DNA of 64,000 nt from Bacilli bacterium (GTDB lineage Bacteria > Bacillota_I > Bacilli_A > RFN20 > CAG-826). The notes beneath the pieces are model-generated. The model made no database searches. It was not told the origin of the DNA and saw only the letters and a list, made by a program, of their open reading frames with translations. This document shows, piece by piece, positions 1,125 through 58,887 of the stretch (position 1 is its first letter; each line of letters starts with the position of its first letter). The DNA is taken from NCBI GenBank assembly GCA_017940265.1, contig JAGAYY010000025.1, positions 711 through 64,710 of the forward strand, written 5' to 3'. Both the position numbers and the translations under genes were made by a program.

Positions 1125-2456
1125 ATGATTAAACTTTACGTAAATAAAGAAAGTGATATTAATTACTTAGGAAGGATAATCGAGATACAAGACTATGAAT
1201 CAATTCCTGGTGCTGATAGAATTAAGGTAGCTAGGGTATTTGGTTTCAAGGTTGTAGTAGGAAATGATGCTGAGCCAGGAAAGTATGTATATTTTCCGGT
1301 AGGTAGTGTGTTAAATCCTGAGATGTTATCTTTTCTAGGTCTATACAGAAAATCAAAGTATAATACTGACAAAACCAAAGAAGGTGACTTAGAATTTTCC
1401 GGGCGCATCAAGGGTCGGAAATTTCGGGGCATCTGGTCTGAGGGTTATTTACTTAGGATCGAGGAAGTAGAGCAATGGTTAGGGACATTTGATTCTGGAA
1501 CTATACTCTGGGCTAATGAATTTGATACTCTGGGGTGGCAAGACTCTGGTGGAAATCATTCTACATGGATCCTCAAGAAATTCTGCCCCAAGATAGAACC
1601 GACCAGAGGAAAACAGCGCCCGGATATGAGAGGAAATGTACCGGAGAGACTCTATCGGCGTATGATTCCTGGGCAATTTAACTTCCACTATGAAACGCTG
1701 CAACTAAAGTATAAGCCTGGAATTATTCGTCCTGATACTTTTTTGTGGATAACTAAAAAGGTAGATGGAACTTCAGGGATATCAGCCAAAGTATTAGTGC
1801 AGCGTAAGTCATGGGAAGTATGGAAGCCCAGGAGGTATTACGCCGGAATTTATGCCTCTAGTAGTGTTATCAAGTCTAAGTGGCTAAATCATAAGGCTGG
1901 TCCTGGTTGGTATGGAGTTGATATATGGGCTGAAGCAGATAAAGTCGTAGGCCCTAAGCTCTGGAAAGGTATGACTGCTTATTATGAGATTGTCGGATAT
2001 TTACCTAACGGAGAATTTATTCAGAAAAACAATGACTTCGGTTGTATTAAGCCGGGAGGAGATGAATTTGAAGTAGGTAAAAATTTCAGAGTCTTATTAT
2101 ATCGGATTACCTTAACTAGTCCTGATGGTGAGGTACATGAGTTTACTCCCCCTCAAGTTAAAGAATGGGCAGAGTCGGTTGGTCTAGAATCTGTTACCCT
2201 ATTGTATGAGGGTTGGGCTAAAAACTTATACCCCGAACTTGACCCTGCCAAACACTGGAATGATAACTTCATGGACAGATTATCTAAGGATTTTGGTATG
2301 GAAGGATTAGATCCAGAATGTAAGAATGAAGTTCCCCTTGAAGGACTTGTTATTCGAGTTGGAAATCTGGCTTATAAACTTAAATCAAACTTCCATCTCG
2401 AGAGAAAAGCGGCCTGGGAAGAAAGTGGTTATCAAGATCCGGAGGACTTAGCATGA
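1125..2456 (+). CDS. ATP-dependent RNA ligase (N-terminal OB-like domain plus nucleotidyltransferase, Rnl5/DRB0094-like)
   Basis: Motif I KxDG is present (ITKKVDGTSG). EGLVIRV resembles motif IV and YKLKS resembles motif V. The N-terminus (IPGADRIKVARVFGFKVVVG) resembles the OB module of N-OB RNA ligases. Confidence 0.6.
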   Translation: MIKLYVNKESDINYLGRIIEIQDYESIPGADRIKVARVFGFKVVVGNDAEPGKYVYFPVGSVLNPEMLSFLGLYRKSKYNTDKTKEGDLEFSGRIKGRKFRGIWSEGYLLRIEEVEQWLGTFDSGTILWANEFDTLGWQDSGGNHSTWILKKFCPKIEPTRGKQRPDMRGNVPERLYRRMIPGQFNFHYETLQLKYKPGIIRPDTFLWITKKVDGTSGISAKVLVQRKSWEVWKPRRYYAGIYASSSVIKSKWLNHKAGPGWYGVDIWAEADKVVGPKLWKGMTAYYEIVGYLPNGEFIQKNNDFGCIKPGGDEFEVGKNFRVLLYRITLTSPDGEVHEFTPPQVKEWAESVGLESVTLLYEGWAKNLYPELDPAKHWNDNFMDRLSKDFGMEGLDPECKNEVPLEGLVIRVGNLAYKLKSNFHLERKAAWEESGYQDPEDLA

Positions 2457-2839: not shown

Positions 2840-4946
2840 AAGATTAGAACGAATAGAGAAACTTAAACAAGTCGCGGAAACTGTTAAGACTGAGTACGTA
2901 GGTCTTGATGGAATTATTGATGAACTTGAGAAAGCTATCTGTCCTTGGTATATAACTCCGGAGATCATTGAAAGACCACAAATTATATCACTCTGGGGTA
3001 TGACTGGGACAGGTAAAACTTCGGTCGTTAAACGTTTTCTCGAACTTTTGGGTCTAATTCCTAAAACTTTGTTCTTGGATTGTGGGGAACTTGCCGGGGA
3101 TTCTGGACGCTCATTGACAGATAAAATAAATGATTACCTTGGAGAAGATGAAGATGCGATGTCTCCAGAGGGATTAGTCTTTGTTTTCGATGAATTTCAG
3201 TATTCCAGAACCTTAAATGAATCTGGGGAAGAGGTTACCAAATCAAATCTTCGACCCGTTTGGAGTTTAATAGATTCAGGTATCATTAATCTTACCGAAA
3301 ACTCTTGGGATGCTGGAACATTCGAAAGTTTTTATGAGGATTTGAGATCTTTTGCGGACTTACACCCTGGGATTGTACTAGATGAATGTAATATAATTAA
3401 TCCCGATGACGTTAAGACTATCTTAGGGGACTTGGGATTAGTCTATTTCGGACGTGGAATTCCTGGATTTATGAAACCGAAGAAATCTTATAGTCATAAT
3501 TCGGATGAAGATGCTAAAGAAGATGAGGATCCATATCGTCCACTTAGAGTTATCGAAGATAATATTGTTAGAATCTTGAGATGGAAACTTAAGCAGAGAT
3601 GTGGAATAGAATATTTTCAGTCCGTTCTTGGTAGATTAATGTCCGCCAAGACCTTGATTGAATTTGTTGATGTCTTAGGGGAACAACGTCAATATGTATT
3701 AGCCCCTAGAAATATAGATTGTTCTGGTTCGCTAGTATTCATCTTAGGAAACTTAGATGAAGCCTATCGAAGTTCAGAGGACATAAATCCAGATCTTGAT
3801 GCCGATATGTTCTATGATACAACAAGTAAAGTAACTATTTCAGATATTAAAGAGGCATTAAAGAAAAGATTTAGACCAGAACAAATTGCTAGATTTGGGA
3901 ATAACATTATTAGATACCCCTCCTTATCTCGGGCCCATTTTATTGAATTAATTGAGAAAGAATGTGATCGAGTATGTAGAAGATTCACTGAGTCGACGGG
4001 TATATCAGTTAGAGTGGCTGAAGATCTTAAGAACTTATTATACTCGGAAGGTGTTTATCCAGTCCAAGGAGCAAGACCGATTTTCACTACTATCTCAACT
4101 ATCCTAACTCCATTATTTTCTAGGATCCTGATTTTCCTCGACTCCAAAGAAAATAAAGAGTCATACAATGTTATTCTCTCATTAAATGGTCAAACTGATT
4201 TTAAACGTCAGGAAATCAAAGCTTACATAGAATATTCCGATGTTATGAGAGAGACAGTAACAGTTCCATTACAACTTGGGGCTGAACGTGATCCTGCCTG
4301 TCGGAAAACTCGAGTTCCCAATAGTGTTCATGAGTCAGGGCATGCAATCGTTATGGCATACTTAACGGGAATAATCCCCACCCAAGTAATATCGGTATCT
4401 ACTGATCATGGTGGATTTTGTCTCACCTATGATAAAGATAAACATTCAGAGATCCCCTCTCGTGGTGATATAGCTAATAATGTATGTATCGGGTTAGCGG
4501 GATACGAAGCTGAAAAATTAATCTTTGGTGAACGGTCAGAAAAATTACTGTGTGGATCAACAAGCGATATAGAAACGACTTGGAATGAATTCGCGCAAGA
4601 AGCATATCGTGGAGGATATTTTGAACCTTTCAGTTATTCTTCCTATCAAACGGAAAATACGACTGATGGGATACCTTCTGGATATGGGGATGATTGGTTG
4701 CGCGATAAAATCAAGTCGGAGTTTGATCGCTTACGTAATAACACAGTTAATATCCTGACCGAAAATAAAAAACTTCTCTGTACAATGGCAAAGAAGATGT
4801 CTGAGAGTGGTGGTCTAAGTGCCCCTGAAATAAAAGATCTCATCGACAAAAACTACGAGGGAACACTAACCTCCGAAAGACTTGCCGAAGCTGCAGAGGA
4901 TAATAGTTATTCTTGGTATCTCAAGAAACTGGAAGAACAAGTCTAA
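2832..4946 (+). CDS. AAA+ ATPase fused to an FtsH-like (M41) zinc metalloprotease domain
   Basis: Walker A is GMTGTGKTS and Walker B-like is VFVFDEF. The C-terminal HESGHAIV is an HExxH motif in FtsH-like context. No N-terminal TM helices are evident. Confidence 0.7.
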   Translation: MSERLERIEKLKQVAETVKTEYVGLDGIIDELEKAICPWYITPEIIERPQIISLWGMTGTGKTSVVKRFLELLGLIPKTLFLDCGELAGDSGRSLTDKINDYLGEDEDAMSPEGLVFVFDEFQYSRTLNESGEEVTKSNLRPVWSLIDSGIINLTENSWDAGTFESFYEDLRSFADLHPGIVLDECNIINPDDVKTILGDLGLVYFGRGIPGFMKPKKSYSHNSDEDAKEDEDPYRPLRVIEDNIVRILRWKLKQRCGIEYFQSVLGRLMSAKTLIEFVDVLGEQRQYVLAPRNIDCSGSLVFILGNLDEAYRSSEDINPDLDADMFYDTTSKVTISDIKEALKKRFRPEQIARFGNNIIRYPSLSRAHFIELIEKECDRVCRRFTESTGISVRVAEDLKNLLYSEGVYPVQGARPIFTTISTILTPLFSRILIFLDSKENKESYNVILSLNGQTDFKRQEIKAYIEYSDVMRETVTVPLQLGAERDPACRKTRVPNSVHESGHAIVMAYLTGIIPTQVISVSTDHGGFCLTYDKDKHSEIPSRGDIANNVCIGLAGYEAEKLIFGERSEKLLCGSTSDIETTWNEFAQEAYRGGYFEPFSYSSYQTENTTDGIPSGYGDDWLRDKIKSEFDRLRNNTVNILTENKKLLCTMAKKMSESGGLSAPEIKDLIDKNYEGTLTSERLAEAAEDNSYSWYLKKLEEQV

Positions 4947-14977: not shown

Positions 14978-15138
14978 TAATAGTGGCGGCTTATGGTAAA
15001 AACTTTAAGAAAAGTTCATTAAATGCTAGAATGGTTTAGACCTAATTAGCAGCTTAGAATAATAAATTCTAAGTTCAACGACTATATATGAACCCTAGAT
15101 GATATAGTCTACGTTATTCAGGAATGAAATAACTATAG
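14978..15138 (+). mobile_element. group I intron 2 (about 161 nt, no ORF)
   Basis: Core elements: P aatgctagaatgg 15022-15034, Q ctaattagcagc 15042-15053, R gttcaacgactatat 15073-15087, S agatgatatagtct 15097-15110. Hairpin gttatt/aataac is followed by tataG at 15138. A short P1 forms between ccgt and gcgg. Confidence 0.6.
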
Positions 15139-16129: not shown

Positions 16130-16481
16130 ATATTACATCAACCCCGAATAGATGGTGCGCTACTTAATAAAAATGCAGATTATTGCTGGAAAGAATGAAA
16201 TTTTTAATCAGCAGCTTATTATTATGAACACCAAGTCAATAGTATCAATCTTAATAACAGTCGGAACAATCTTATCCGGAATTGGCCAGCTCATACACGA
16301 ACTGGAAAACTCGCGCAAAAAGATGTCCGACGATAAGAAACATATGTAATAAGTTCAACGACTATATACTGTACTTAGATGATATAGTCTAATTGGTTAT
16401 GGATGAACATAACCCATAAGGCGTCGGAAGAAGATATTGCGCGTGAATCTTCAGTTCGTCTCCTTATTGACCAAATTCGGG
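16130..16481 (+). mobile_element. group I intron 3 (about 352 nt)
   Basis: Guide gcgctact (16157-16164) pairs 8 bp with exon agtggcgt, with U.G at 16129. Core elements: P 16183-16193, Q 16206-16215, R gttcaacgactatat 16353-16367, S 16377-16390. Using G 16481 as the 3' terminus restores SGV|SLTRQ. A structurally canonical alternative 3' site lies at 16420. Confidence 0.55.
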
Positions 16482-16824: not shown

Positions 16825-18036
16825 CGGAAAAATGACTGCTGTGTATAAATAAGTAAAAATGCTGGAAGGGTAGAATAACCAAATCAGCAGCTAGCATAAA
16901 ATTATTGGGCTTCTTAAAATTAATATGACAGAATTAATAACCTATAAAGGAAAACAATATGAAGTAACTAATCCAGGAGAACTAATATATAGTACAACAC
17001 ATTATCTCAGAGGTTGTAGAAAAGATAAACGATTTGAAATAGTAGATCAACTTAATGGATGTTCTGAAATTCAATAATCATTCAAGTTGTGGTAGTAGAA
17101 TAAAATACCTACAAACTAAATACGGATTAACTGAACTAGATTATTATATAATAGTAGTCTGTAGAGGAGATGAATCAAAGTTACCTAGATGTACTTACGT
17201 AAATCCATATACGGATGAAATATGTAACAAACCTAAGAAATTTCGAACATTAACTCCAGGATTATATTAAAGAACCGGAAAACGAAAAAGAATATTTCAT
17301 GAAGGGTGTGAAGAGCATGCAAGTAATGCAGCAGCTCAAATAGCACAACGAGAAAATTATAAACGTGGCGTTACTAGTCTCCAAAAAGCAGATAGAAAAT
17401 CTAAAGTTTGGAGAAAAACTAAGTCTTCATGCCAAGAAACAAATGGAAGAAGGTAATAGCATCTTTTCTCCAGATGATATCAGAAATGAAAATCTGCCTA
17501 GTTGGAAAAATTTTCAAGTTTTCCCATCAATAAATCATTATAAAGATATCGCAATTTCTCTTGGTATGGATGAGTATAACTTAAGTATCGAGAATTGTAT
17601 ATTAATTGATAAAATAAATTATATACGGAGAGGGAATCCTGAAGATATTTGTATCTATTATTTAACCTATTTTGAAGAAACTAGTGATTACTTTAAACCA
17701 GGTGTTACAATAGACTTAAAAGAAAGATCTAATACTGATTACCATGGATATAAATATAAAACTCCAGAAATATTATTTACATCTAGTCGATTAATTATTG
17801 CAGAAATCGAATATGAGGTAAAATTAAAATTTAAAGATTTCATAGTTTTAGGAAATGAAGCTTTTGATATCAAACACAAAGATGAAATCTTAGAATATAT
17901 AGAAGAACGAATTAACTATTATAATAAAAACGAAGCTCAAGATAGTTAATTATAAAAAAAAATAAAATGCTAGTTCAAAGACTAATATGCTTACAAAGAA
18001 GATATAGTCTATCCTTTTATAGAAATATAAAAGCCG
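16825..18036 (+). mobile_element. group I intron 4 (about 1.2 kb) with a fragmented endonuclease gene
   Basis: Guide gctgtgt (16838-16844) pairs 7 bp with exon acacggt, with U.G at 16824. Core elements: P 16857-16870, Q 16881-16891, R gttcaaagactaat 17973-17986, S 17997-18010. A hairpin cttttata-GAAA-tataaaag follows. The 3' terminal G is 18036 (18033 is also in frame). Confidence 0.6.
16925..17949 (+). pseudogene. intron-encoded T5orf172/GIY-YIG-like endonuclease, apparently split over three frames
   Basis: The coding sequence is in three pieces: 16925-17077 (frame 2), 17055-17270 plus an in-frame continuation after TAA (frame 0), and 17365-17949 (frame 1). The last piece carries ICIYYLTYF...KPGVTIDLKER...GNEAF. 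Confidence 0.4.
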
Positions 18037-19120: not shown

Positions 19121-19473
19121 GTGGAGATAATACTTACTACAACATTATCCTGACTTACGAGATACCATATAATGTATTAGATAGTCAGGACCCTAGTATA
19201 ATTCAAGCCCGGGATAACCTATATGAGAGGTTGGCTAATATAATTCCCCCTAAGTATGAACTTTTCTCGGTTAAACTTGTATTATACCAACTCAAGGATA
19301 CTTATAATTTCTTAGTTACTTACAATGCTTTCTTTAGATCTACCTCGGGATTACCAATGAGTGAATATGTTGAGGCTCGAGATCTAAAGGACTTAATAAA
19401 TAGTGAACTTGAGGAATTTTTCAACTCAGTAGATTGTGAATATAAACAATTGAATATTAAATCTTTAGTATGA
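19117..19473 (+). CDS. hypothetical protein
   Basis: 118-aa ORF with ATGA overlaps on both sides. Confidence 0.45.
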   Translation: MSGDNTYYNIILTYEIPYNVLDSQDPSIIQARDNLYERLANIIPPKYELFSVKLVLYQLKDTYNFLVTYNAFFRSTSGLPMSEYVEARDLKDLINSELEEFFNSVDCEYKQLNIKSLV

Positions 19474-21841
19474 GCAACTTTAATGAGTATTTCAGAAACA
19501 AAGGTGCCAGTTTGATGGTAGAGAGATTCTTCGGAAATGCAGATACTTTTAATCCAAATGTCAAAATTGCTACTATGACTCACTCTATTGTTGATGAGCC
19601 AGAACAACCAGCTTCATATTATGTTGAAAATGGTCTGACTGCAACACATAAGGTGAGAATTGAGTATACAACTACTGACGCTCCGGATGAAATAAAGTAT
19701 TCTGAATTCGAAGTCCCTAAAGAAATAGATGGCGTCTTCATTATTGAGGGAGCCTATCGAATCGCAACCAACAAAATGGGATCGGATTATGACTGCCGTA
19801 TTAGAATGTCTGGATCAGGAGATTATATAATTAACTTCGACTATGACAGAAGATACGACATTAATAAACGTATTCTGAAAATCAAGAGGACTAATCCAGA
19901 ACTCAGATTAATTGACCGAGATGTTAAACTAAAGTATGAGGAAATAGATGCTGCAACAGGTGAAACTAAGGAATTACTGAAACTCTCCGAAGATCAGATT
20001 AAGAAATTCCAGATTAAACTTAACATCGACTATAAACCTGAATATATTAGTACTAGGTTAATTAATGATTGCTTGGCCTTTGGAGATGATAGACTTAAAG
20101 ACTTGATTATAGACAAAACGATAGAAAGTGTACCGACTAGTTTTATAAAACATATCTTTAGATCGAATAACGGTAGAAACTATAATAGTGCTCGTCGTCA
20201 TATTTCGAGCTATTTTGCAAAATATGGAAAACTATCGGAGCAAGTTTCTGTTATAACCACAATGTCTATCCGATTCTTTAAGGGAAGTTCAGATTCAAAG
20301 GGAGATACCGGCTTACAAGTTCCTCCAGGTATTAACGCTGCGAACTTACAAAGCTTGGGAAGTAAAATTACAGTACCAGCAACAGTAGCTTTTAATAGCA
20401 CATTCACTGATTTGATCGATATAGCAGATACACCGATAAATAATAATACCAACCTACAGAACGCACTGACCGTATCTACATCGATTACTGATGATGGTAT
20501 TATATTTCAGGCCTACACATTAGATTGGCAAAGAGTTCCTATTAAGTATATTGATTACTTAAATGCGAAAGTATGTGCCTCTGAGTATGTAGATTACAAA
20601 ACGCATCAAATTAAGCCGAATGAAAATGGTGAGGTTGAGGTTAAGTACAGAATGAGACGCAAAATGGTCAAGGTAGATGAAATTGAATTAATAGATCTAC
20701 ACCCCGATTTCCGTCTCTCTGAAGCTACTCGTCGAATTCCATTTATTAATTCAACTGACTCTGTTCGTATTTCAATGGGCGCATCGATGCTAAAACAAGC
20801 AATCCCATTGGTAAATGCAGAACGAGCACTTGTCGGTACTGGTCATTCAGAAGAACTGAAAGACAATGTACTAAATGAAAAATTTAAATACGACAAAGGA
20901 AAGGTTAAAGATATTACGGAGTTTGATATTGAAATAGAACTTCCGGATGGTCAGATAATCAAACATCCTCGTCGAACAGCAATCCAATCTCAGAATGATG
21001 TTTGTGTCTATTCTCAGCCTAAGGTTAAGATAGGACAGAAACTTAAGAAGGGAGATATTATTGCTGGTGCCACTAACTTAGAGGTAGATACTTATAAAAA
21101 TGGTATCAATGCTCTTGTACTATTCCATGCCTATCACGGTTTAGTTAATGAAGATGCACTTGTTGTGTCTGAATCATTCGCTAATAAATGTGTTCACTAT
21201 AGTATCATTGATTTACAGTTGAACATTAAGAATACTGCAGCCCTTAAATGGATTGCTCCGATAGGTACAAAAGTTAAGTCTGGGGATAGTGTTGTTGGTG
21301 TTTATAAGACGAATCGATTAGATGACGTAAATAAAGCTCTTGCCGAAAAATTAGGAGGACTTTTTGGTGAAGGAGGTAAGGATATCACTGAATATACTAC
21401 CGAAGATTTCCTTAAGGTACCAAATAACATTGACGAAGCTTATATATCCGATGTCTTAATTCAGGAACAAAAAAATCCTAAAATTCCTAAGTCAGTTAAA
21501 ACCCCCGACTATCGATTTTCACAAACTTCTCGTGAGGTTGCAGCCGAGTACGAAAAGGGAATGGATAGAAAAGTAATCTATGACCGTTTCCCAGAGTATG
21601 TAGCCTCCGATCGTCTACGCCCAATTAATATGAGCCGTGATGAATATAAAGTTACTTTTACCGTCAGAATAAGACTAATCAAGAGAACTATCCTTATGGT
21701 TGGTTCAAAAGTTACTAATTCTTATGGTGGAAAGGGTGTGATCTCGATGGTTAAACCAGATGAATTAATGCCTATAATGGTTGACAAAAACACAGGCAAA
21801 CAGCATCGTGTCGAAGTCATAATGAACCCATATTCCACGAT
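19470..21841 (+). CDS. rpoB: RNAP beta homologue, exon 1
   Basis: RRIPFINSTDSVRISMGASMLKQAIPL matches [38 protein letters not shown]...ELMP matches GDKxAGRHGNKGVxS...DMP. The exon ends ...MNPYSTI. Confidence 0.75.
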
Positions 21842-22699
21842 AAACTAGCGATTTGTCGTGATTAAATTGTATAAAAATGCTGGAAAGGTTAATCCCAATC
21901 AGCAGTATAGATTAGTATTGTAAGTTAGTATGTCTGTCCTGAACTTAACAAAAATAAAAGCATATGGAAACAGATAAAAACTTATGGTGGTATGAGAGAT
22001 TATATAAACAAATCACCGAACGAGGAAAACTACGTGGAGATGATAAATCAAAATTAGAAGGATACTATGAAAGGCACCACATCGTTCCTAGATGTGTTGG
22101 AGGTGGAGACGAACCAGAAAATCTAGTCCTCCTAACCTTCAGAGAACATGTCTTATGTCATATTATTCTCACTCGATTATATCCACGAAACTTACATATC
22201 TTGTTAGCAGCAAATATCTTGTTGCGAATAGACAAGAAAGACACAAATGGTAATATTATTAAGGTAACTATTAAACGATCTAGAGTTGCCGAAGACATAA
22301 AACTTAAATACGCAGAGGGTAAAACTAGAGAAGAAAGAATCAAAGTTTCTACCCCAGAATTAGGTCGTCGTTATTCTAAAGAAACGAGAGAAAAATTTAG
22401 GGCAGCTAGATTAGGGAAGAAACACCCAGGACATCCAGGCTTAGGAACAAAACCCAAGCCAGTCAAAGATCCAGCAGGTGTTATATTCCGAAGTCTTAAT
22501 CGCTGTTCAAAGGCATATTGCGTTAGTATTTCCACAGTTAAAGGTTGGATTACGAGAAGACAAGGATTTACTTACGTAGAAGATGATGAGTAAGACGACT
22601 GACCTACAATACTTAATCTATATTCAAAGACTATATATACAACTGTCCCAGATTACAGATGATATAGTCTAGCCTAAGGTGCAAACCTATAGGATATTG
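21842..22699 (+). mobile_element. group I intron 5 (858 nt) with an HNH endonuclease ORF
   Basis: Guide gtcgtg (21855-21860) pairs 6 bp with exon cacgat, with U.G at 21841. Core elements: P 21875-21888, Q 21897-21906, R attcaaagactatat 22612-22626, S agatgatatagtct 22647-22660. A hairpin is followed by atattG at 22699. Confidence 0.7.
21964..22593 (+). CDS. intron-encoded HNH homing endonuclease
   Basis: HHIVPRCVGGGDEPENLVLLTFREHVLCH is an HNH motif. NUMOD-like repeats (SKETREKFRAARLGKKH) lie C-terminal to it. Confidence 0.75.
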   Translation: METDKNLWWYERLYKQITERGKLRGDDKSKLEGYYERHHIVPRCVGGGDEPENLVLLTFREHVLCHIILTRLYPRNLHILLAANILLRIDKKDTNGNIIKVTIKRSRVAEDIKLKYAEGKTREERIKVSTPELGRRYSKETREKFRAARLGKKHPGHPGLGTKPKPVKDPAGVIFRSLNRCSKAYCVSISTVKGWITRRQGFTYVEDDE

Positions 22700-46981: not shown

Positions 46982-49900
46982 ATGAATAGAAGAATTACAA
47001 TATTTGATGAAAAAGATTTTGAAACCAATTATCTACTCTGGTGGTCTCTACCTCTAGGTCAAGAAATCTATTCTATCAGTAACTTAATGGCAATGACACG
47101 TCCAGATCTCGAAAGAATACTTAGTATCGGAGAAGGAGACGCTGTATTAGTTGCCTGTTCTGATGGATGGAAGATGATTAAGGATAGATATCATGTTGGA
47201 GTTAGATCTGAAGGTTTTGTAGATTGCCAACAGCTGAAGAGGTTATCTGTTGAGGGCGGAGCATTCCTGAAGTGCATACCTGCCGGAGAATTCCCAGAAC
47301 CAGAAGATATAGCTGAGTTCATGGATCCTGGATTTACTACACCAGTTAAATATGATTGGTTTAAGCAAAAGGTTCTTAAGACTTTGGAAGAAGCTAATCG
47401 ATTTATGGACTGGGCAGAGAGTCAACCCATGAATGTACATTGGGGATTTGACTACGAGGGTTCTGGTATGCCATTAGATAAGTGGTATGAACTTTCCGGA
47501 TTTTCACTATGTACTACTAGAATTGGTGCATTTGTTAGTTTGACTGATATTAGACATCGTTCTAGTCCAGAGGATTATCAAGCTTTTCTTCTCAGATTGG
47601 GAAGATTTTTAGAGACTAGAATGAAAACTATCTGGGTATTCAATATGCAATATGAGTTTCTAGTGAGTCATAGAATGTTAGGTGGAGTAGATCTATATAA
47701 CCTATGTGATTCTGGTGTTTTCAATATACTGGATGGATATCATTTAAATAAGAAATATTCACTTAAGTGGACTGCTCAGAGAATTTTAGGTGTTCAAGTG
47801 TGGGATGCAGAATTTGATAGAATCTCAGATCTCATCGACTCTATGTTATTCACTGAAGTTGGAAAAACTAAAGCTGAAAAACACAAAGTACTTAAAGTTA
47901 CTCCCACCGATTATCAAGGAACTCCGGAATGGGCTGAACTATGTAAGAGATATCCGACTTATATAGCAGAATTCGAGTCTCTTATAGCGGAATACTGGGG
48001 AAATCCATTTATGTGTATTCCTTCAGATATCCTAGGTTATTACTGTAATCTTGATGCATTCTATACTTTAATGCTATATGAAACCAAGAAAACAGAATAT
48101 ACTTGGGAAGCTATAGATACTTTTCTTGATAACCTTAGATTAGCATGTAGACTTCATTCTTGTGGTATACCTAAATGGGAATCTTATCGTAAGGAATATG
48201 AAGTTTATTGTGAAGAACAGATGGCATGGGGTATAACCTATTGTGCTGCCGCTAGATGTAAAATCAAAATGAATAAACATCAAGCTAAGATGGCAGACAT
48301 AAAAAAATACCCCGAGATAGCACAGAAACTACTTAAGAATAATAAATTCTTTGGTGGAGATCCTATTGCAATAACTAAAGATATCCTAGTCTCTAATCTG
48401 GATACAATGGATACAACTGAAACAGGATTGAATGATGGTCTCTTGCTTATGAACTATGGACCTGACTTCGCTGAAAAATTCCTCGAAGTTGTTAAGAATG
48501 CAATGGTTCAGGTTAAGATGAAAACTAAGATAGATGATGGAATAATTAGAAAAAAGAAAATCCTAGGAATCATAGCCGAGGAAGTTACTAAACTGATCGG
48601 ATTAGATAAACTTAAACTAGGACCTAAACATATCGAGCTTGAAAAATATCTGTATTATGAAAGAGCATATAACGAACTCATTAAGATTTCTAGAACTCAA
48701 CTCACAGATATTAATAATGTACCTGATGCTATCATAGCTTTCGGCCAGAAATTTACACGACTCGAATATTCAGATTATATATCCGAGAATTATTTCAAGT
48801 GTAAGAGTCCGATAGAAAATGATGAAATCTGTCTCGAGTTTGCACAATTATTTCCTTCCGAGTCGAGTTTTCTGGCCGCCTTACATGATAGCATTCAACA
48901 GCTTAATGGTACTACAGGATTTTATAAAAACTTGGGTATAACTACGATAGAGGATGCATTTAAACATTTCCAAACCGAATACACTAAAGTATGGAATGGA
49001 ACACCTATCGAACAAACCGATTATCCAGAAAAAGTCTATTCATTAGCGTATTCCTTCTATAATAACCTTAAGTGCGACGAAGTAAAAGAAATTTGGTCAG
49101 ATTTCAAGGGTTTCGAATCACAAGAGAAGTTTTTCGGGTATGTAGGAGATCAATTCCTCGACTATGAAAAACCATTCGAGCCAACTGACTTAGATAATAA
49201 CTTCTTCTTCATGAGAAAGTTAGTAGTTAGTTATCTTATGTATAAAAAATATGCCAAAGTTCTTAGTACTTATATTGACGGAATGTTCACAAAAACAGAT
49301 ACTTGGGTAATGGAAGATCCGATCAGCCATGTAATGATACGAGAGGCTGATCCATCCGAACCAGGAGCTGTTTGTAAGATGAGACCAAAATTCCAATGTA
49401 TGGAAAAAAGCTCTAAACGATGGAGTTCTGGTTATCATACAATTATAAGTCATTCTGATATCAAAAGTACTCTTCGATCTTATTCAGGACACTTACTTTC
49501 GTACTTTGACATAAGTAGTGCGGAGGTAAAGTCTGCTGGTTTTGCTAGTGGTGATCCTGATTTGATTAATATGTTTATAAATGGAATTGATGTATATATT
49601 GCAACAGCTAAACTTTATCTTGGAGAAGCAGGTTGGGGAAAATTAACCAAAGGAGATCAGAAAGAATGGAGAAAAAAATTTAAAACAATTTTCCTAGGAA
49701 TTCTGTATGGTCTCGGAAAACAATCTTTGGCAACCCGACTTAATTGTAGTGTAGACGAGGCTGAAAAAATCATTCAAGCAGTTTATACAGCATATCCAAA
49801 ACTTAGAGAATATGTGGCTGGTCAACAGCAATATGTTCTTGAGCATGAAGGTTATATTAATACCTTCTTTGGCGATAAACTTAGAGTTGCTGAGTGGAAA

Positions 49901-50464
49901 TGGTATAAGAAGGCAAAAACCGAAAGAGAGAAAAAGAATCTCGAAGCTAGAATGGCAAGACTTGGGGTAAATCTTCCTATTCAAGGAGGAACAAGTACTG
50001 CTATGAGTTCAGGTTTCTTCAATGACCTTAGAGTTGCCAAACAGGAGGGTTGGGCATTAACAAGTTTTGTAACGGTTCATGATTCAAATACTTGTGATTT
50101 TAGTGTTGATAAGCTTTGGGGAATACGAAGCTTTTATGATAAAAACTTCACTGACTTCTGTTATGAAAAGACGGGTATCAAGTTATTGTTTGATATCTTA
50201 ATAGGAGTAACATATGAAGATGCCTGTGAAGCTAAACAAATAAGTGATGATATTGTAGAACTTAAAGGTAATGCAAGATCTCATTTAATGATAATCGAAG
50301 AGATGAATAATTGTCCTGGTCTTAAATATGAGATTAATGTTCCACTAGAAAGCATTGTTCCAAATTATATAGAAGATCCAGTTCAAAGGTTCGTTAAAGA
50401 AAAGGGTTGTTCGATGGTAATGGATAAATCTAGTTATACCATTCAATATCGAAAACTTAGTTAA
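46982..50464 (+). CDS. family A DNA polymerase with an N-terminal 3'-5' exonuclease region
   Basis: Exonuclease motifs: FDYEGSG and YYCNLDAFY. Polymerase motifs: A YFDISSAEVK, B RKKFKTIFLGILYGLG, C TVHDS. Confidence 0.8.
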   Translation: MNRRITIFDEKDFETNYLLWWSLPLGQEIYSISNLMAMTRPDLERILSIGEGDAVLVACSDGWKMIKDRYHVGVRSEGFVDCQQLKRLSVEGGAFLKCIPAGEFPEPEDIAEFMDPGFTTPVKYDWFKQKVLKTLEEANRFMDWAESQPMNVHWGFDYEGSGMPLDKWYELSGFSLCTTRIGAFVSLTDIRHRSSPEDYQAFLLRLGRFLETRMKTIWVFNMQYEFLVSHRMLGGVDLYNLCDSGVFNILDGYHLNKKYSLKWTAQRILGVQVWDAEFDRISDLIDSMLFTEVGKTKAEKHKVLKVTPTDYQGTPEWAELCKRYPTYIAEFESLIAEYWGNPFMCIPSDILGYYCNLDAFYTLMLYETKKTEYTWEAIDTFLDNLRLACRLHSCGIPKWESYRKEYEVYCEEQMAWGITYCAAARCKIKMNKHQAKMADIKKYPEIAQKLLKNNKFFGGDPIAITKDILVSNLDTMDTTETGLNDGLLLMNYGPDFAEKFLEVVKNAMVQVKMKTKIDDGIIRKKKILGIIAEEVTKLIGLDKLKLGPKHIELEKYLYYERAYNELIKISRTQLTDINNVPDAIIAFGQKFTRLEYSDYISENYFKCKSPIENDEICLEFAQLFPSESSFLAALHDSIQQLNGTTGFYKNLGITTIEDAFKHFQTEYTKVWNGTPIEQTDYPEKVYSLAYSFYNNLKCDEVKEIWSDFKGFESQEKFFGYVGDQFLDYEKPFEPTDLDNNFFFMRKLVVSYLMYKKYAKVLSTYIDGMFTKTDTWVMEDPISHVMIREADPSEPGAVCKMRPKFQCMEKSSKRWSSGYHTIISHSDIKSTLRSYSGHLLSYFDISSAEVKSAGFASGDPDLINMFINGIDVYIATAKLYLGEAGWGKLTKGDQKEWRKKFKTIFLGILYGLGKQSLATRLNCSVDEAEKIIQAVYTAYPKLREYVAGQQQYVLEHEGYINTFFGDKLRVAEWKWYKKAKTEREKKNLEARMARLGVNLPIQGGTSTAMSSGFFNDLRVAKQEGWALTSFVTVHDSNTCDFSVDKLWGIRSFYDKNFTDFCYEKTGIKLLFDILIGVTYEDACEAKQISDDIVELKGNARSHLMIIEEMNNCPGLKYEINVPLESIVPNYIEDPVQRFVKEKGCSMVMDKSSYTIQYRKLS

Positions 50465-50472
50465 TAAAAATT

Positions 50473-50513
50473 AGATCAACAATAGATAAATTCTAAAGTT
50501 GATCTTTTTTTTG
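50473..50513 (+). terminator. rho-independent-type terminator
   Basis: Stem agatcaac/gttgatct followed by T8. Confidence 0.6.
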
Positions 50514-50544: not shown

Positions 50545-51027
50545 GGTTCCGTAGCTCAGTTGGATAGAGCAACTGCCTTTAATTATCTAGAAATAGATAA
50601 TGGAGTGCTATGGCGAGAAATCCCATAGTAGAAGTGCCCTAATTAAATACCTTAAATTTAAAGGTACGGTGAAAGTCCTTTTTATAAAAATACTAAACAA
50701 TAATGTATGAGGATAACGCCGAGCTAAATTGAAAATATGAAATAAGCGTTTGTACTTGAAGAAATATTTTCATAAATGTGTAGAGAACATAGAGGCACAA
50801 CCTAAGTTGGAATTAAGCAAGAATCATAAGACTCTTGCTTATAGAAATGTAACAATTTATCAAACATTACTTGCAAGAATTTCAATATGGTTATAACATG
50901 TTCCAGACTACAACAACATCAGCTTGTAATAAAGTGCTAGAAATAATTGGAGACTGTAATGTTGGCTATAGTAATATAGTGTAGTATGCTAAGCAGTAGG
51001 TCTTGGGTTCGACTCCCAACGGAATCA
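50545..51027 (+). tRNA. tRNA-Arg(UCU), interrupted by a group I intron in the anticodon loop
   Basis: 5' half, 50545-50579: ggttccg ta gctc agttggata gagc a actgc ctt. 3' half, 50989-51027: ctaa gcagt aggtc ttggg ttcgact cccaa cggaatc a. The spliced loop CUUCUAA gives anticodon UCU. No CCA is encoded. Confidence 0.7.
50580..50988 (+). mobile_element. group I intron (409 nt, no ORF) within tRNA-Arg
   Basis: R-like gttccagactaca (50900-50912) and S-like aatatagtgtagta (50973-50986) give a P7 of actaca/tgtagt. P1 is a hairpin capped by GAAA (50581-50601) with U.G possible at 50579/50603. The intron ends in G at 50988. Confidence 0.6.
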
Positions 51028-51030
51028 CAT

Positions 51031-51066
51031 AAGAAAGACAAGGTTAAAGTCTTTCTTTTTTTTTAT
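51031..51066 (+). terminator. rho-independent-type terminator after the tRNA
   Basis: Stem aagaaagac/gtctttctt followed by T9. Confidence 0.65.
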
Positions 51067-51215
51067 TTATAGATATATAAGAGAGACATAATTTAGCCTA
51101 GCTAGGTATCTAAATTTTTTTGTCCCTCTCTTACACAATTTTCTAATGAGTTTATTGTGTTTCATTCTTAGGGTTCTTAGGGCTTCTCAAGCGCGTTTTT
51201 CCAAAGTCAAGAAAA

Positions 51216-51228
51216 CCTTATTTATGTT
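51216..51228 (+). promoter_or_regulatory. CCTTATT-NN-TGTT box (gaaaaccttatttatgtt)
   Basis: Lies upstream of pncB. An in-frame ATG at 51224 sits inside the box and the ATG at 51245 lies 16 nt after it. Confidence 0.4.
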
Positions 51229-51244
51229 ATATAAAAATAAAATT

Positions 51245-52423
51245 ATGATGTTAAGTATTTTAGACACAGACTTGTACAAAGCAAGTACCTCCTATGCTTA
51301 TTGGAGTTTATATCCATTAGCAGAAGGAACATTTACGTTTAATGATCGTAATAAAGAAACTTATGATCAAGAATTCATTGATCAACTTAAGTTAGAATTT
51401 ACTAAGTTAGGATCTCTTCGCCTTAAGGATGATGAATTTGAGTGGGCAGTTAAAAAAATCCCATATATTCCTCTTCCTTTCTGGGAGTGGCTTAAGACTT
51501 TTAAATTTGAGCCCACCAAGATTCATATAGGCCTTGATTCAGAGGGACACCTAGAAATTGAAGTAACAGATTTTCTATATAAAGTTACTTGGTATGAAAT
51601 TCCAGTTTTAGCTATCGTATCTGAGCTGCGCAATAAATATCGCGGGTATATAGCTAATCATTCTAAAATGATTGAGATACTTGATGAGAAGATTAACATG
51701 GCAAATGAATATCATCTCAAATTTTCTGAATTTGGAACCCGCAGAAGATATAGCGCAGCAAGTCATGATAGCATTGTTGGCCGTTTAAAAGAAAGATGTC
51801 CGATCTACTGTGTTGGTACGTCAAATATGTACCTTGCAATGAAGTATGGAATTACTCCTTCTGGTACATTTCCTCACGAATGGATACAGGCCCATGCAGG
51901 TATGTTTGGTAATAAGAGAGCAAACTACTTAATGCTTGAAGCTTGGATCAAAGTTTACAGAGGAGATCTAGGAACTGCACTTACTGATCTTTTTGGAACT
52001 GAATCTTTCTTAAGAACATTGACAAGACAACAAGCTCTCCTGTTACAGGGTTATCGAATTGATTCTGGTGATAATTTTAAAGTTGGTAACATGATTATTG
52101 ACCGACTTAAAGAGTTTAAGATTGATCCAAAAACTAAGCTTCTTGTGTTCTCCAATGCTCTAGATTTCCCGAAGTATAAAGAAATTTATGACTATTTTAA
52201 TGGACGTATTCAAGTTAGTGCAGGTATTGGAACGAATATAACGTGTGATCCTGGAATTGATGGGTACAAACCTGCTAATATAGTTATGAAACTTAGTCGG
52301 GTTAGAATGTCTGATAAAGATCCTTGGGAAAAGTGTATCAAAATCTCAGATGATTTAGGAAAACATATTGGTGATCCTAAGGAAATTGAAATTGCTAAAT
52401 ATGAGCTTCACATTGGAGACTGA
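51245..52423 (+). CDS. pncB: nicotinate phosphoribosyltransferase (alternative start 51224)
   Basis: Motifs seen: ILDTDLYKAS, SEFGTRRR and VGTSN, all typical of PncB-type NAPRTase. The tracked start 51146 is probably too far upstream. Confidence 0.75.
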   Translation: MMLSILDTDLYKASTSYAYWSLYPLAEGTFTFNDRNKETYDQEFIDQLKLEFTKLGSLRLKDDEFEWAVKKIPYIPLPFWEWLKTFKFEPTKIHIGLDSEGHLEIEVTDFLYKVTWYEIPVLAIVSELRNKYRGYIANHSKMIEILDEKINMANEYHLKFSEFGTRRRYSAASHDSIVGRLKERCPIYCVGTSNMYLAMKYGITPSGTFPHEWIQAHAGMFGNKRANYLMLEAWIKVYRGDLGTALTDLFGTESFLRTLTRQQALLLQGYRIDSGDNFKVGNMIIDRLKEFKIDPKTKLLVFSNALDFPKYKEIYDYFNGRIQVSAGIGTNITCDPGIDGYKPANIVMKLSRVRMSDKDPWEKCIKISDDLGKHIGDPKEIEIAKYELHIGD

Positions 52424-57333: not shown

Positions 57334-57349
57334 AAACTTAGGAAATCTG

Positions 57350-57421
57350 TAGCCGGTAGGAGAGTCGAACTCCTCTTTAGAGAATGAAAATCTCTCGTCC
57401 TAACCGATAGACGAACCGGCC
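57350..57421 (-). tRNA. tRNA-Glu(UUC)
   Basis: A canonical 72-nt cloverleaf on the minus strand: ggccggt tc gtct atcggtta ggac g agaga ttTTCat tctct aaag aggag ttcgact ctcct accggct a. Confidence 0.85.
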
Positions 57422-58227: not shown

Positions 58228-58297
58228 TCAATAATCTAGGATTCGAACCTAGGACCTCTAAATTTCTCTAGCACTCTACCATCTGAGCTAATTATTT
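58228..58297 (-). ncRNA. tRNA-like RNA lacking an anticodon loop (GAAA tetraloop in its place)
   Basis: The minus strand reads aaataat ta gctc agatggta gagt g ctaga GAAA tttag aggtc ctagg ttcgaat cctag attattg a. The D-arm, variable loop and T-arm are canonical. The anticodon stem is capped by only 4 nt. Confidence 0.55.
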
Positions 58298-58377: not shown

Positions 58378-58887
58378 ATGAAGATAGTTTTAATAGAAGA
58401 AATGGTGAGCATTAAAATATTTAATGCCGCCACAAATGGAGTTTGGTTTAGACGTCCGAAGATAAACTTAGAAGGAGTAGATAGTAAGTACATAGAAGAG
58501 TATGAAGATTGGGAAGGTAAGAAGTGTTTGAGATTTAATTTTGAAGAATATGCAAAAGATCATCATGAATTAGACTGTACGATTGATTATCCATTATCTA
58601 CTAAATGTGATTTTAAAATAATTCTTCCCGAAAATAAATGGAGACCCGGAGAATATGTATTTAACACAGAGGATATAGTAGATCAAGTATGTAAGAAATA
58701 TCATGAAATATATCGAGAAGAATCAGAAACTCTAACTAAAATAGATAAACCTAATCCACATCTCATTAATCGGGGCTTCTCTAATGGAAAATGGGGAATT
58801 TGGGGACATGATATAGGAGATCTAGTTCTTGAAGAGATTTCGTTAGATACAGAAAAACATAGAATAAACTTAGAAATTGGATCTTGA
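58378..58887 (+). CDS. hypothetical protein
   Basis: 169-aa ORF. Confidence 0.5.
   Translation: MKIVLIEEMVSIKIFNAATNGVWFRRPKINLEGVDSKYIEEYEDWEGKKCLRFNFEEYAKDHHELDCTIDYPLSTKCDFKIILPENKWRPGEYVFNTEDIVDQVCKKYHEIYREESETLTKIDKPNPHLINRGFSNGKWGIWGHDIGDLVLEEISLDTEKHRINLEIGS

Follow-up and report, generated by a model that had tools for sequence, protein, structure and literature searches.

At positions 50545-51027 of the 64,000 nt stretch of contig JAGAYY010000025.1 analysed here (the window), two segments resembling the halves of a tRNA are separated by several hundred nucleotides. This raises the question of whether they are the exons of a single functional gene and, if so, what kind of element lies between them. 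The evidence presented below makes it very probable that the locus is a functional tRNA-Arg(UCU) gene, whose anticodon loop is split between U34 and C35 by a 409 nt group I intron that has an IC3-like core and carries no open reading frame (ORF).

The two halves of the tRNA gene

The 5' half (50545-50579) reads GGTTCCG-TA-GCTC-AGTTGGATA-GAGC-A-ACTGC-CTT and the 3' half (50989-51027) reads C-TAA-GCAGT-AGGTC-TTGGG-TTCGACT-CCCAA-CGGAATC-A, with a variable loop of 5 nt, A as discriminator base and no encoded CCA. Exactly 409 nt (50580-50988) lie between them, in agreement with an earlier note on this DNA, which had described two tRNA halves at that distance. ARAGORN run with its intron search reported one tRNA here, at 50545-51028 with a 409 nt intron. 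In a default ARAGORN search of the window the interrupted gene was not detected and only a tRNA-Glu at 57349-57421 was listed, and Rfam models applied to the window at gathering thresholds likewise gave only the tRNA-Glu and a tRNA-like RNA at 58228-58297, without detecting the interrupted tRNA-Arg.

When the exons were joined as CUU|CUAA, the product was a canonical class I cloverleaf of 74 nt which ARAGORN called as tRNA-Arg(tct). Cyanophage S-TIM5 has an annotated tRNA-Arg that lacks an intron, to which the product could be aligned with no gaps and which has the identical anticodon arm ACTGCCTTCTAAGCAGT; the 38 nt stretch 50545-50582 showed 95% identity to annotated cyanophage tRNA-Arg genes by megablast; the 5' half of the tRNA was the only part of the locus matched in that phage collection. 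Arginine identity depends, by the rules established for Escherichia coli, on A20 and C35. The D-loop AGUUGGAUA puts an A at position 20, and C35 is predicted, on the basis of sequence only, to be restored by splicing. AGA was the commonest arginine codon in 26 long ORFs of the window (51.5% of Arg codons), so a tRNA-Arg(UCU) would plausibly be useful to a phage carrying the gene.

Homology of the insert to a family of group I introns

A sensitive BLAST search with the insert led to two crAss-like phages, IAS virus and cr116_1, in each of which it matched the non-coding DNA between the two parts of a split DNA primase gene. The three elements could be aligned in common blocks, with approximately 80% identity across the central 150 nt. 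The 18-mer TTCATAAATGTGTAGAGA (window positions 50768-50785) was found in 32 IMG/VR contigs and 12 genome contigs, and in 16 of the 32 IMG/VR loci the element lay inside a tRNA gene according to ARAGORN with intron search. Eight of the 12 matches in bacterial genomes, including those in Dolichospermum and Calothrix, were chance occurrences outside any intron and were rejected.

Boundaries were assigned by the group I splicing rule, which calls for U as the last base of the 5' exon (one exception has C) and for G as that of the intron. In this way 13 proper tRNAs were obtained, comprising eight tRNA-Leu(UAA), two tRNA-Arg(UCU) and one each of tRNA-Ser(UGA), tRNA-Met(CAU) and tRNA-Leu(CAA). The same rule fused the two annotated fragments of each crAss-like primase gene into a single ORF (IAS virus, 330 aa; cr116_1, 343 aa), and these continuous ORFs confirm that the elements are introns with the boundaries assumed.

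Membership of the window copy in this family was established with models from which it had been excluded. A profile hidden Markov model built from 19 relatives matched 50595-50994 (E=2e-56), and no further significant match was found in the window on the plus or minus strand. A custom covariance model of the core from P3 to P7' (P3-P8; 162 positions, 36 pairs) matched 50661-50907 over its full length with 70.3 bits (E=4e-15), again as the sole significant match, in a region of 30% G+C; P4, P5, P6, P6a and P8 of the window copy were paired as expected in that alignment. The family was linked to known group I introns by the Rfam model RF00028 (Intron_gpI), which matched the 381 nt tRNA-Leu intron of L029 over the full model length with 39.2 bits (E=1.5e-8) and exceeded its gathering score of 50 with the short relatives L043 (71.9 bits) and L039 (63.6 bits); both of these carry the 18-mer and lie in tRNA genes of gammaproteobacterial metagenome-assembled genomes (MAGs). 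In the RF00028 alignments of the relatives, the R element was matched by GUGUAGAGAC(U)A and the S element by AUAGUCC.

An interruption of another kind, whether an archaeal/eukaryal bulge-helix-bulge tRNA intron, a group II intron or an unrelated insert between chance tRNA-like halves, therefore has next to no probability: its position in the anticodon loop is all that would speak for it, whereas the insertion is at 34/35 and not 37/38, 409 nt is short for a group II intron (no search aimed at domains V and VI was made), no bulge-helix-bulge was recognized in the junctions or the minimum free energy (MFE) fold, although no dedicated search was made, and the insert has full-length homology to a group I family whose relatives pass the Rfam group I threshold.

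Covariation and folding

Base pairing was counted formally in a MAFFT alignment of 20 introns (alignment A2), using 51 pairs from P1, P3, P6a, P7, P8, P8a, P9.0, P9 and P9a. P2, P4 and P5 were left out because they were out of structural register in this alignment, and were handled through RNAalifold and the custom covariance model; P9 and P9a of one subfamily were also out of register. Standard pairs occupied 91.9% of the cells, compared with 35-43% when the 3' partners were slid by 1-3 columns. Changes on both sides were seen in 29 pairs (8-11 in the slid controls) and the covariation score was 0.344 (0.05-0.08 in the controls). On four of five measures, none of 500 shuffles reached the observed value.

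Among the individual helices, P3 was 100% paired with compensatory changes in all five pairs (GUGCC/GGCAC in the window, UCUCC/GGAGA, GUUGG/CCAAC and others elsewhere), P7 was 98% paired (GACUA/UAGUC, GAACA/UGUUC or GAGUA/UAUUC) and all six pairs of P9 had a compensatory change, while P9.0 included an exchange of C-G for U-A. The pair G785-C903 was invariant in 20/20 aligned introns. All 51 tested pairs were standard in the window copy.

Unguided folding of a trimmed alignment without the window by RNAalifold recovered the anticodon stem, P2, P3, P4, P5, P6, P6a, P8 and P9.0; the anticodon stem, which pairs exon with exon, also showed compensatory changes. The single-sequence MFE fold of the precursor recovered P1-P6, with a z-score of -3.5.

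Splice junction and anticodon assignment

Across the family, a guide triplet in the intron pairs with the last three bases of the 5' exon, GAG with CUU and, in tRNA-Met, GUG with CAU. Immediately upstream of the guide, the intron has a base that changes together with the one opening the 3' exon, the two being G-C in 3/3 Arg introns, U-A in most Leu introns and C-G in the Ser intron; in the window, this P10 contact is G50602-C50989. The last intron base is G in 19/20 members. Taken together, the guide, the U·G pair at the 5' splice site, the terminal G and P10 support the junction CUU|CUAA, with the anticodon UCU and the intron between positions 34 and 35. The predicted spliced product reads ...ACUGCCUU-CUAAGCAGU... 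across the ligated junction.

ARAGORN with intron search, which had been proposed as a check, recovered the 409 nt intron but printed the anticodon as gct, i(35,409), which corresponds to a tRNA-Ser(GCU) with its intron one base upstream (50579-50987). That placement also leaves a loop of 7 nt. It would, however, make the intron end in U after U50578 and lose the U·G, terminal-G and P10 pattern found throughout the family; the variable loop of 5 nt contrasts with the long arm of bacterial tRNA-Ser; and the tRNA body is 95% identical to tRNA-Arg genes and has A20. Moreover, the anticodons given by ARAGORN were inconsistent (tca, tta, gct and caa) in 25 other contigs with the same GCCTT|...G|CTAAGC arrangement. 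A tRNA-Ser is thus exceedingly improbable. The loop CUUCUAA, the anticodon UCU and the 34/35 site proposed in the earlier note are upheld by the family-wide P1/P10 rule and by the tRNA-Arg(tct) call on the joined exons, and its identification of a group I intron in a tRNA-Arg(UCU) gene is borne out by the homology, the covariation, the custom model, the RF00028 matches to relatives and the changes in P1 and P10.

Two relatives depart from the splice-site pattern. The intron in the tRNA-Arg(UCU) gene of L014 (2289-2901, minus strand) ends in A, and C replaces U before the 5' splice site in the tRNA-Leu(CAA) gene of L033 (6640-6974, minus strand); either may be an inactive or relaxed copy.

Structure of the intron

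The features of the gene, of the intron and of the adjacent DNA are listed in Table 1. The longest ORF overlapping the intron has 48 aa, and the intron therefore encodes no homing endonuclease. P1 is extended by 8 bp, visible in the sequence and in the MFE fold, and is capped by GAAA at 50590-93; this cap, the wobble pair U50579·G50603 at the 5' splice site and the terminal G at 50988 are all present as the earlier note had described them. The sequence of P2 varies across the family while its pairing holds.

The element formed by J6/7, the 5' strand of P7 and P3' is ugugUAGAGAACAUAGAGGCAC (50777-50798). GAGA.../...UCC in P7 is the guanosine-site motif of the Tetrahymena and Azoarcus introns. 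The same motif is present in the window, with G783, a bulged A784 and G785, and by analogy this P7 would bind guanosine. The earlier note had assigned P7 to actaca/tgtagt. This helix is real and covaries (50907-12 with 50980-85), but it is P9.0, the true P7 being GAACAU/AUGUUC; correspondingly, its R-like element consists of P7' plus the 5' strand of P9.0, and its S-like element of P9a plus the 3' strand of P9.0.

Of the peripheral elements of IC3 introns, a GAAA loop L2, the canonical 11 nt tetraloop receptor in P8 (CCUAAG 50801-06 with UAUGG 50886-90) and a GUAA loop can be seen in the sequence. The window copy has extra elements besides, namely the hairpin in J3/4, P5a and extensions of P8 and P9, and its core may be described as IC3-like.

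Table 1. Features of the interrupted tRNA-Arg(UCU) gene, its intron and the adjacent DNA (window coordinates; bases in pairs may be given by the last three digits)
Feature	Position	Strand	Description
tRNA-Arg(UCU) 5' exon	50545-50579	+	Acceptor 5' strand, D-arm with A20, anticodon-stem 5' strand, loop C32 U33 U34
tRNA-Arg(UCU) 3' exon	50989-51027	+	C35 U36 A37 A38, anticodon-stem 3' strand, T-arm, acceptor 3' strand
Group I intron	50580-50988	+	409 nt, without ORF >48 aa
P1	50577-50605	+	Exon CUU 50577-79 with guide GAG 50603-05: C577-G605, U578-A604, U579·G603
P2	50607-50629	+	CUAUGG/CCAUAG plus G615-C622 and A616-U621; GAAA tetraloop L2 50617-50620
P3	50634-38 with 50794-98	+	GUGCC/GGCAC; placed by eye and MFE fold
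Extra 6 bp hairpin in J3/4	50648-50666	+	Optional insertion site of the intron family
P4	50667-71 with 50717-21	+	CGGUG/CGCCG; followed by J4/5 AAA
P5/P5a	50675-50715	+	GUCCU 50675-79 with AGGAU 50711-15; AUAC/GUAU
P6 and P6a	50723-50779	+	P6 GC/GU; P6a UGAAAAUAU 50730-38 with AUAUUUUCA 50764-72
J6/7, P7 5' strand and P3'	50780-50798	+	GUAGAGAACAU AGA GGCAC
P7	50783-90 with 50898-904	+	G783-C904, bulged A784, G785-C903 through U790-A898; GAACAU 50785-90 with AUGUUC 50898-903
P8	50799-50892	+	AACC/GGUU base, 9 bp P8a, ~60 nt distal extension
J8/7 and P7 3' strand	50893-50904	+	J8/7 AUAAC 50893-97, P7' AUGUUCC; whole element AUAACAUGUUCC
P9.0	50907-12 with 50980-85	+	ACUACA/UGUAGU
P9	50914-19 with 50959-64	+	CAACAU/AUGUUG
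P9a	50966-79	+	Hairpin CUAUA-GUAA-UAUAG, GUAA loop 50971-74
Terminal guanosine (omega G)	50988	+	Last intron base
Family A DNA polymerase gene	46982-50464		Directly upstream of the tRNA unit
NAPRTase gene	51146-52423		Directly downstream of the tRNA unit
Terminator-like hairpin	50473-50513	+	AGATCAAC...GTTGATCT then T-run, after the DNA polymerase gene; read by eye
Terminator-like hairpin	51033-51064	+	AGAAAGAC...GUCUUUCU then T-run, begins 6 nt past the tRNA; read by eye

Functional gene or pseudogene

Several observations weigh against a functional gene with an active intron. RF00028 gave no match to the window copy at E<=10 in a 751 nt region or at E<=1 in the whole window, so that this copy is below the gathering threshold (50 bits) and the check with the generic group I model, proposed in the earlier note, formally failed here while L043 and L039 passed it. 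We attribute the miss to a lack of sensitivity caused by the long peripheral insertions (~200 nt in total). Since the generic model is blind to the window copy, its identification rests on relatives. The custom model misplaced the 5' strand of P3 in the window copy, owing to the 22 nt insert (with a 19 nt hairpin) between J3/4 and P4. J3/4 normally makes base triples with the core, and this insert or the long extensions of P5, P6, P8 and P9 could slow or disable folding. P10 amounts to a single Watson-Crick pair, no sigma-70-type promoter was predicted upstream of the tRNA, and the intron of L014, without a terminal G, suggests that inactive copies exist in the family.

On these grounds the locus might be regarded as a tRNA-Arg pseudogene with a decayed, non-splicing group I intron, for which the blindness of the generic model, the unusual hairpin in J3/4 and the altered splice sites of L014 (no terminal G) and L033 (C instead of U) can be cited. 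Against decay, all 51 core pairs tested are intact in the window, with compensatory double changes relative to other members (P3 GUGCC/GGCAC, P7 GAACA/UGUUC and P9a CUAUA/UAUAG), a pattern implying that the structure is still under selection. The window copy also keeps the U·G pair, the terminal G, the motif of the guanosine site, the 11 nt receptor and the GAAA loop L2, both exons are intact and AGA is the main arginine codon. Inserts in J3/4 are common in the family, with 19-144 nt at the same place in many other members. A pseudogene is consequently unlikely, and a functional tRNA-Arg(UCU) gene with its intron is retained as the preferred interpretation.

Distribution of related introns

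A search with a degenerate 31-mer that runs from P9a through P9.0 and the terminal G into CTAAGC gave 37 metagenome contigs and seven IMG/VR contigs; at least one contig, recognized by its identical length and match position, occurs in both sets. At least 43 distinct contigs thus have the arrangement of the window. All 25 contigs inspected (several of them 100-190 kb) carried diverse tRNA-Arg(UCU) genes with the arrangement GCCTT|intron...G|CTAAGC. A bacterial tRNA-Arg(UCU) gene of a Paludibacteraceae MAG (L045, ~4100-4300 of JAZUGJ010000011.1, minus strand) was also found to hold a minimal intron of ~190 nt of the same family at the site CUU|CUAA; rpoD-like, Clp ATPase and HaeIII restriction-modification genes were its neighbours on the contig. 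These contigs and the MAG show that the arrangement is recurrent in Bacteroidales-associated and rumen/gut sequence space and is not peculiar to the window. The family is apparently widespread in phage tRNA genes of the gut and rumen, and apparently unreported. The earlier note knew of no phage tRNA-Arg(UCU) example. No published report of one was found, but with at least 43 public contigs the case is not a one-off.

Other relatives occupy tRNA-Leu, tRNA-Ser and tRNA-Met genes as well as crAss-like primase genes. The shortest are 190-320 nt long and have the textbook tetraloop-receptor pair.

Four primase genes split by the family were seen, namely L001 1191-1789 (IAS virus), L002 1230-1792 (cr116_1), L012 and L027. 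In RefSeq, each split primase of IAS virus and cr116_1 is annotated as two separate coding sequences. The insertion site reads AGACUU|AAAAUUU, or AAACUU|AAAAUUU in L002, L012 and L027, and mimics the anticodon loop of tRNA-Leu(UAA), GGACUU|AAAAUCC.

Among the remaining loci, L039 (2166-2457) and L043 (3566-3824) are tRNA genes, probably for tRNA-Asn(GUU), broken after CUGU by group I introns of ~190 nt; we know of no other group I intron in a tRNA-Asn(GUU) gene. Five IMG/VR loci (L003, L006, L011, L021 and L024) had the same core from P2 to P7' with no GAGU guide upstream, and a complete tRNA-like sequence stood right after P7' in place of P9.0 and P9, forming a ribozyme-tRNA fusion. In L004 and L020 the 3' half of a tRNA-Leu followed the intron and the 5' half was >420 nt upstream, suggesting an insert in P1 or P6, whilst in L026 the ribozyme core was followed directly by a tRNA-Leu 5' half. 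The guide GGAU of L019 and L031, with a 3' exon beginning AA, suggests insertion after UCU, at position 36/37.

Genomic context

The tRNA unit stands between a family A DNA polymerase gene and a NAPRTase gene and is bracketed by two terminator-like hairpins (Table 1). The upstream hairpin was not flagged by the consensus scan because its stem has too few G-C pairs; one match that the scan placed inside the tRNA was judged false. Other genes of the window encode DnaB-like and superfamily 2 helicases, ClpB, a P-type ATPase, an RNA ligase and a multisubunit-RNA polymerase (RNAP) beta-like protein, the best matches of which (23-31% identity) include proteins of jumbo phages such as Staphylococcus phages S6 and PALS_2. 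This gene content suggests that the window comes from a large phage genome that is very divergent, and the description of the DNA as phage in the earlier note can be followed to that extent. The same phage, or an allele of the locus without the intron, was sought with the C-terminus of the DNA polymerase (PolA) against IMG/VR and by exact look-up of the NAPRTase protein; the former gave no match and the latter no record.

The RNA ligase ORF (1125-2456, plus strand) matched the phage RNA ligase family phrog_968 (E=1e-25). Considered along with the phage tRNAs, this ligase hints at an investment in tRNA repair or supply.

The tRNA-like RNA at 58228-58297 (minus strand) scored 49 bits with the Rfam tRNA model and had normal acceptor, D and T arms. 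Its anticodon loop was replaced by a GAAA tetraloop on a 5 bp stem (CUAGA-GAAA-UUUAG), leaving it without an anticodon. ARAGORN presented the region as a second intron-containing tRNA, c[58228,58772]; this candidate was rejected, as its 'intron' lies inside an ORF (58378-58887) and Rfam sees a complete 70 nt tRNA-like RNA at 58228-58297.

Three copies of a 78 nt element (15056-15133, 16336-16413 and 17956-18033) were found at 15.0-18.1 kb, where they occupy the spaces separating ORFs a short way upstream of the RNAP beta-like ORF (19470-21848). The element contains classical group I R and S motifs, AAGTTCAACGACTATA...AGATGATATAGTCTA, and is missed by Rfam. It looks like a second, different intron lineage; the proposal in the earlier note that the genome hosts at least two lineages is hence plausible, given a different R/S pair, GTTCAACGACTA...GATGATATAGTC, present three times at 15.0-18.0 kb.

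Proposed splicing pathway and origin

From this anatomy a pathway may be proposed. A precursor of ~0.5 kb would be transcribed between the two terminator-like hairpins. On folding of the intron, P1 would present U50579·G50603, the P3-P9 core would form and the GAAA loop L2 would dock on the 11 nt receptor in P8. A free guanosine, bound in P7 at G785-C903, would attack after U50579. P9.0 and P10 (G50602-C50989) would bring G50988 into the same guanosine site, and attack by the 5' exon after G50988 would join CUU to CUAA. RNase P, 3' trimming and CCA addition would then complete the 74 nt tRNA.

Whether the RNA would act by itself is a separate matter. Many group I introns need proteins in vivo. 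With the same anatomy, splicing might be assisted by a phage or host maturase or chaperone and so not be true self-splicing, and the high A+U content of the RNA (30% G+C in the model match) and its large peripheral extensions fit such a requirement; conversely, the intron contains no maturase or endonuclease ORF and has the tetraloop-receptor contacts typical of self-sufficient small IC3 ribozymes. Dependence on a protein is on balance rather unlikely, and unaided splicing of the tRNA-Arg(UCU) precursor is favoured.

The intron is most likely a selfish passenger, presumably neutral for the phage, that entered by reverse splicing at an anticodon loop containing CUU, and its lineage has most likely moved among phage tRNA-Leu, tRNA-Arg, tRNA-Ser and tRNA-Met genes and into crAss-like primase genes. 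A broader proposal, to which we give a little less than an even chance, is that, in the viromes of gut and rumen, phage tRNA genes (Arg-UCU, Leu-UAA, Leu-CAA, Ser-UGA and Met-CAU) have been colonized by a large, undescribed ORF-less lineage, which hops by reverse splicing between anticodon loops and sites in protein genes that mimic them. More speculatively, the intron might delay the supply of the phage tRNA until the ribozyme has folded, or might hide the gene or its precursor from host anticodon-loop nucleases.

Implications

A review published in 2014 stated that all phage introns found to date were in protein-coding genes, despite the many tRNA genes of phages (Hausner, Hafez and Edgell; PMC3984707). 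This generalization, as applied to group I introns, is contradicted by the present results, in which phage tRNA genes are occupied and, in rumen/gut metagenomes, commonly so. The full-text literature yielded no description of phage tRNA genes with group I introns, most subscription journals being outside the reach of the search, and papers on crAss-like and Jug phages describe introns in protein genes only.

Because default ARAGORN and the Rfam tRNA and group I models miss genes of this type, phage tRNA repertoires are undercounted, and analyses of codon adaptation, suppressor tRNAs and missing tRNAs in recoded phages could be affected. With one lineage at CUU| sites in several tRNA species and at a primase site resembling an anticodon loop, the family provides a natural data set on intron spread, and it bears on endonuclease-free spread by reverse splicing. 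Its short members are candidate ribozymes for study or engineering.

Comparison with known introns

A close parallel among known systems is the tRNA-Leu intron of Kuhsel et al. 1990 (as cited in PMC3984707), which is likewise inserted between positions 34 and 35 after CUU, has a U·G pair at the 5' splice site and a terminal G; this ribozyme too is small and free of ORFs, and its P2-P9 core lacks P2.1 and P5abc. Many members of the present family are in tRNA-Leu(UAA) at exactly that site. The window copy differs in its host gene, tRNA-Arg(UCU), in the phage-like genome around it, and in having a long P9.0, a three-way P9 domain, a J3/4 hairpin and a large P8 extension. No direct kinship between the two was shown, as the two cyanobacterial matches to the 18-mer are not introns.

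The tRNA introns of Azoarcus and Agrobacterium, reportedly due to Reinhold-Hurek and Shub in 1992, are located 3' of the anticodon, unlike the intron at 34/35 in the window; that of Azoarcus presumably shares GUGUAGAGACUA, CGCCGAGCCAAG, CCUAAG...UAUGG and the docking of the GAAA loop L2 on P8 with the window copy. They are ~200 nt long and G+C-rich, whereas the window intron has 409 nt and ~30% G+C, and the window isoacceptor is Arg(UCU) and not Arg(CCU) or Ile. The resemblance lies in their being bacterial anticodon-loop introns with an IC3 core, in tRNA-Ile(CAU) of Azoarcus (structures cited in PMC3984707 and PMC13168695) and tRNA-Arg(CCU) of Agrobacterium.

Group I introns are known from crAss-like phages (Yutin et al. 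2021, PMC7886860). Those that split the primase genes of IAS virus and cr116_1 belong to the same family and have the same core blocks and splice rule, but they sit in a protein gene, at a site that mimics an anticodon loop. In that study introns were found through endonuclease domains, and tRNA genes were not mentioned. The classical phage introns (T4 td, nrdB and sunY, Twort, SPO1 and the RNAP introns of jumbo phages) share the group I mechanism and a phage host with the window intron; they differ in being all in protein-coding genes, mostly of subgroup IA and often accompanied by homing endonuclease genes. It is the repeated R/S element at 15-18 kb of the window that resembles this classical type. 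In its architecture and mechanism, the intron at 50580-50988 is a tRNA group I intron of the bacterial/plastid kind, and what is new is the phage-like genome, the Arg(UCU) isoacceptor and the peripheral insertions.

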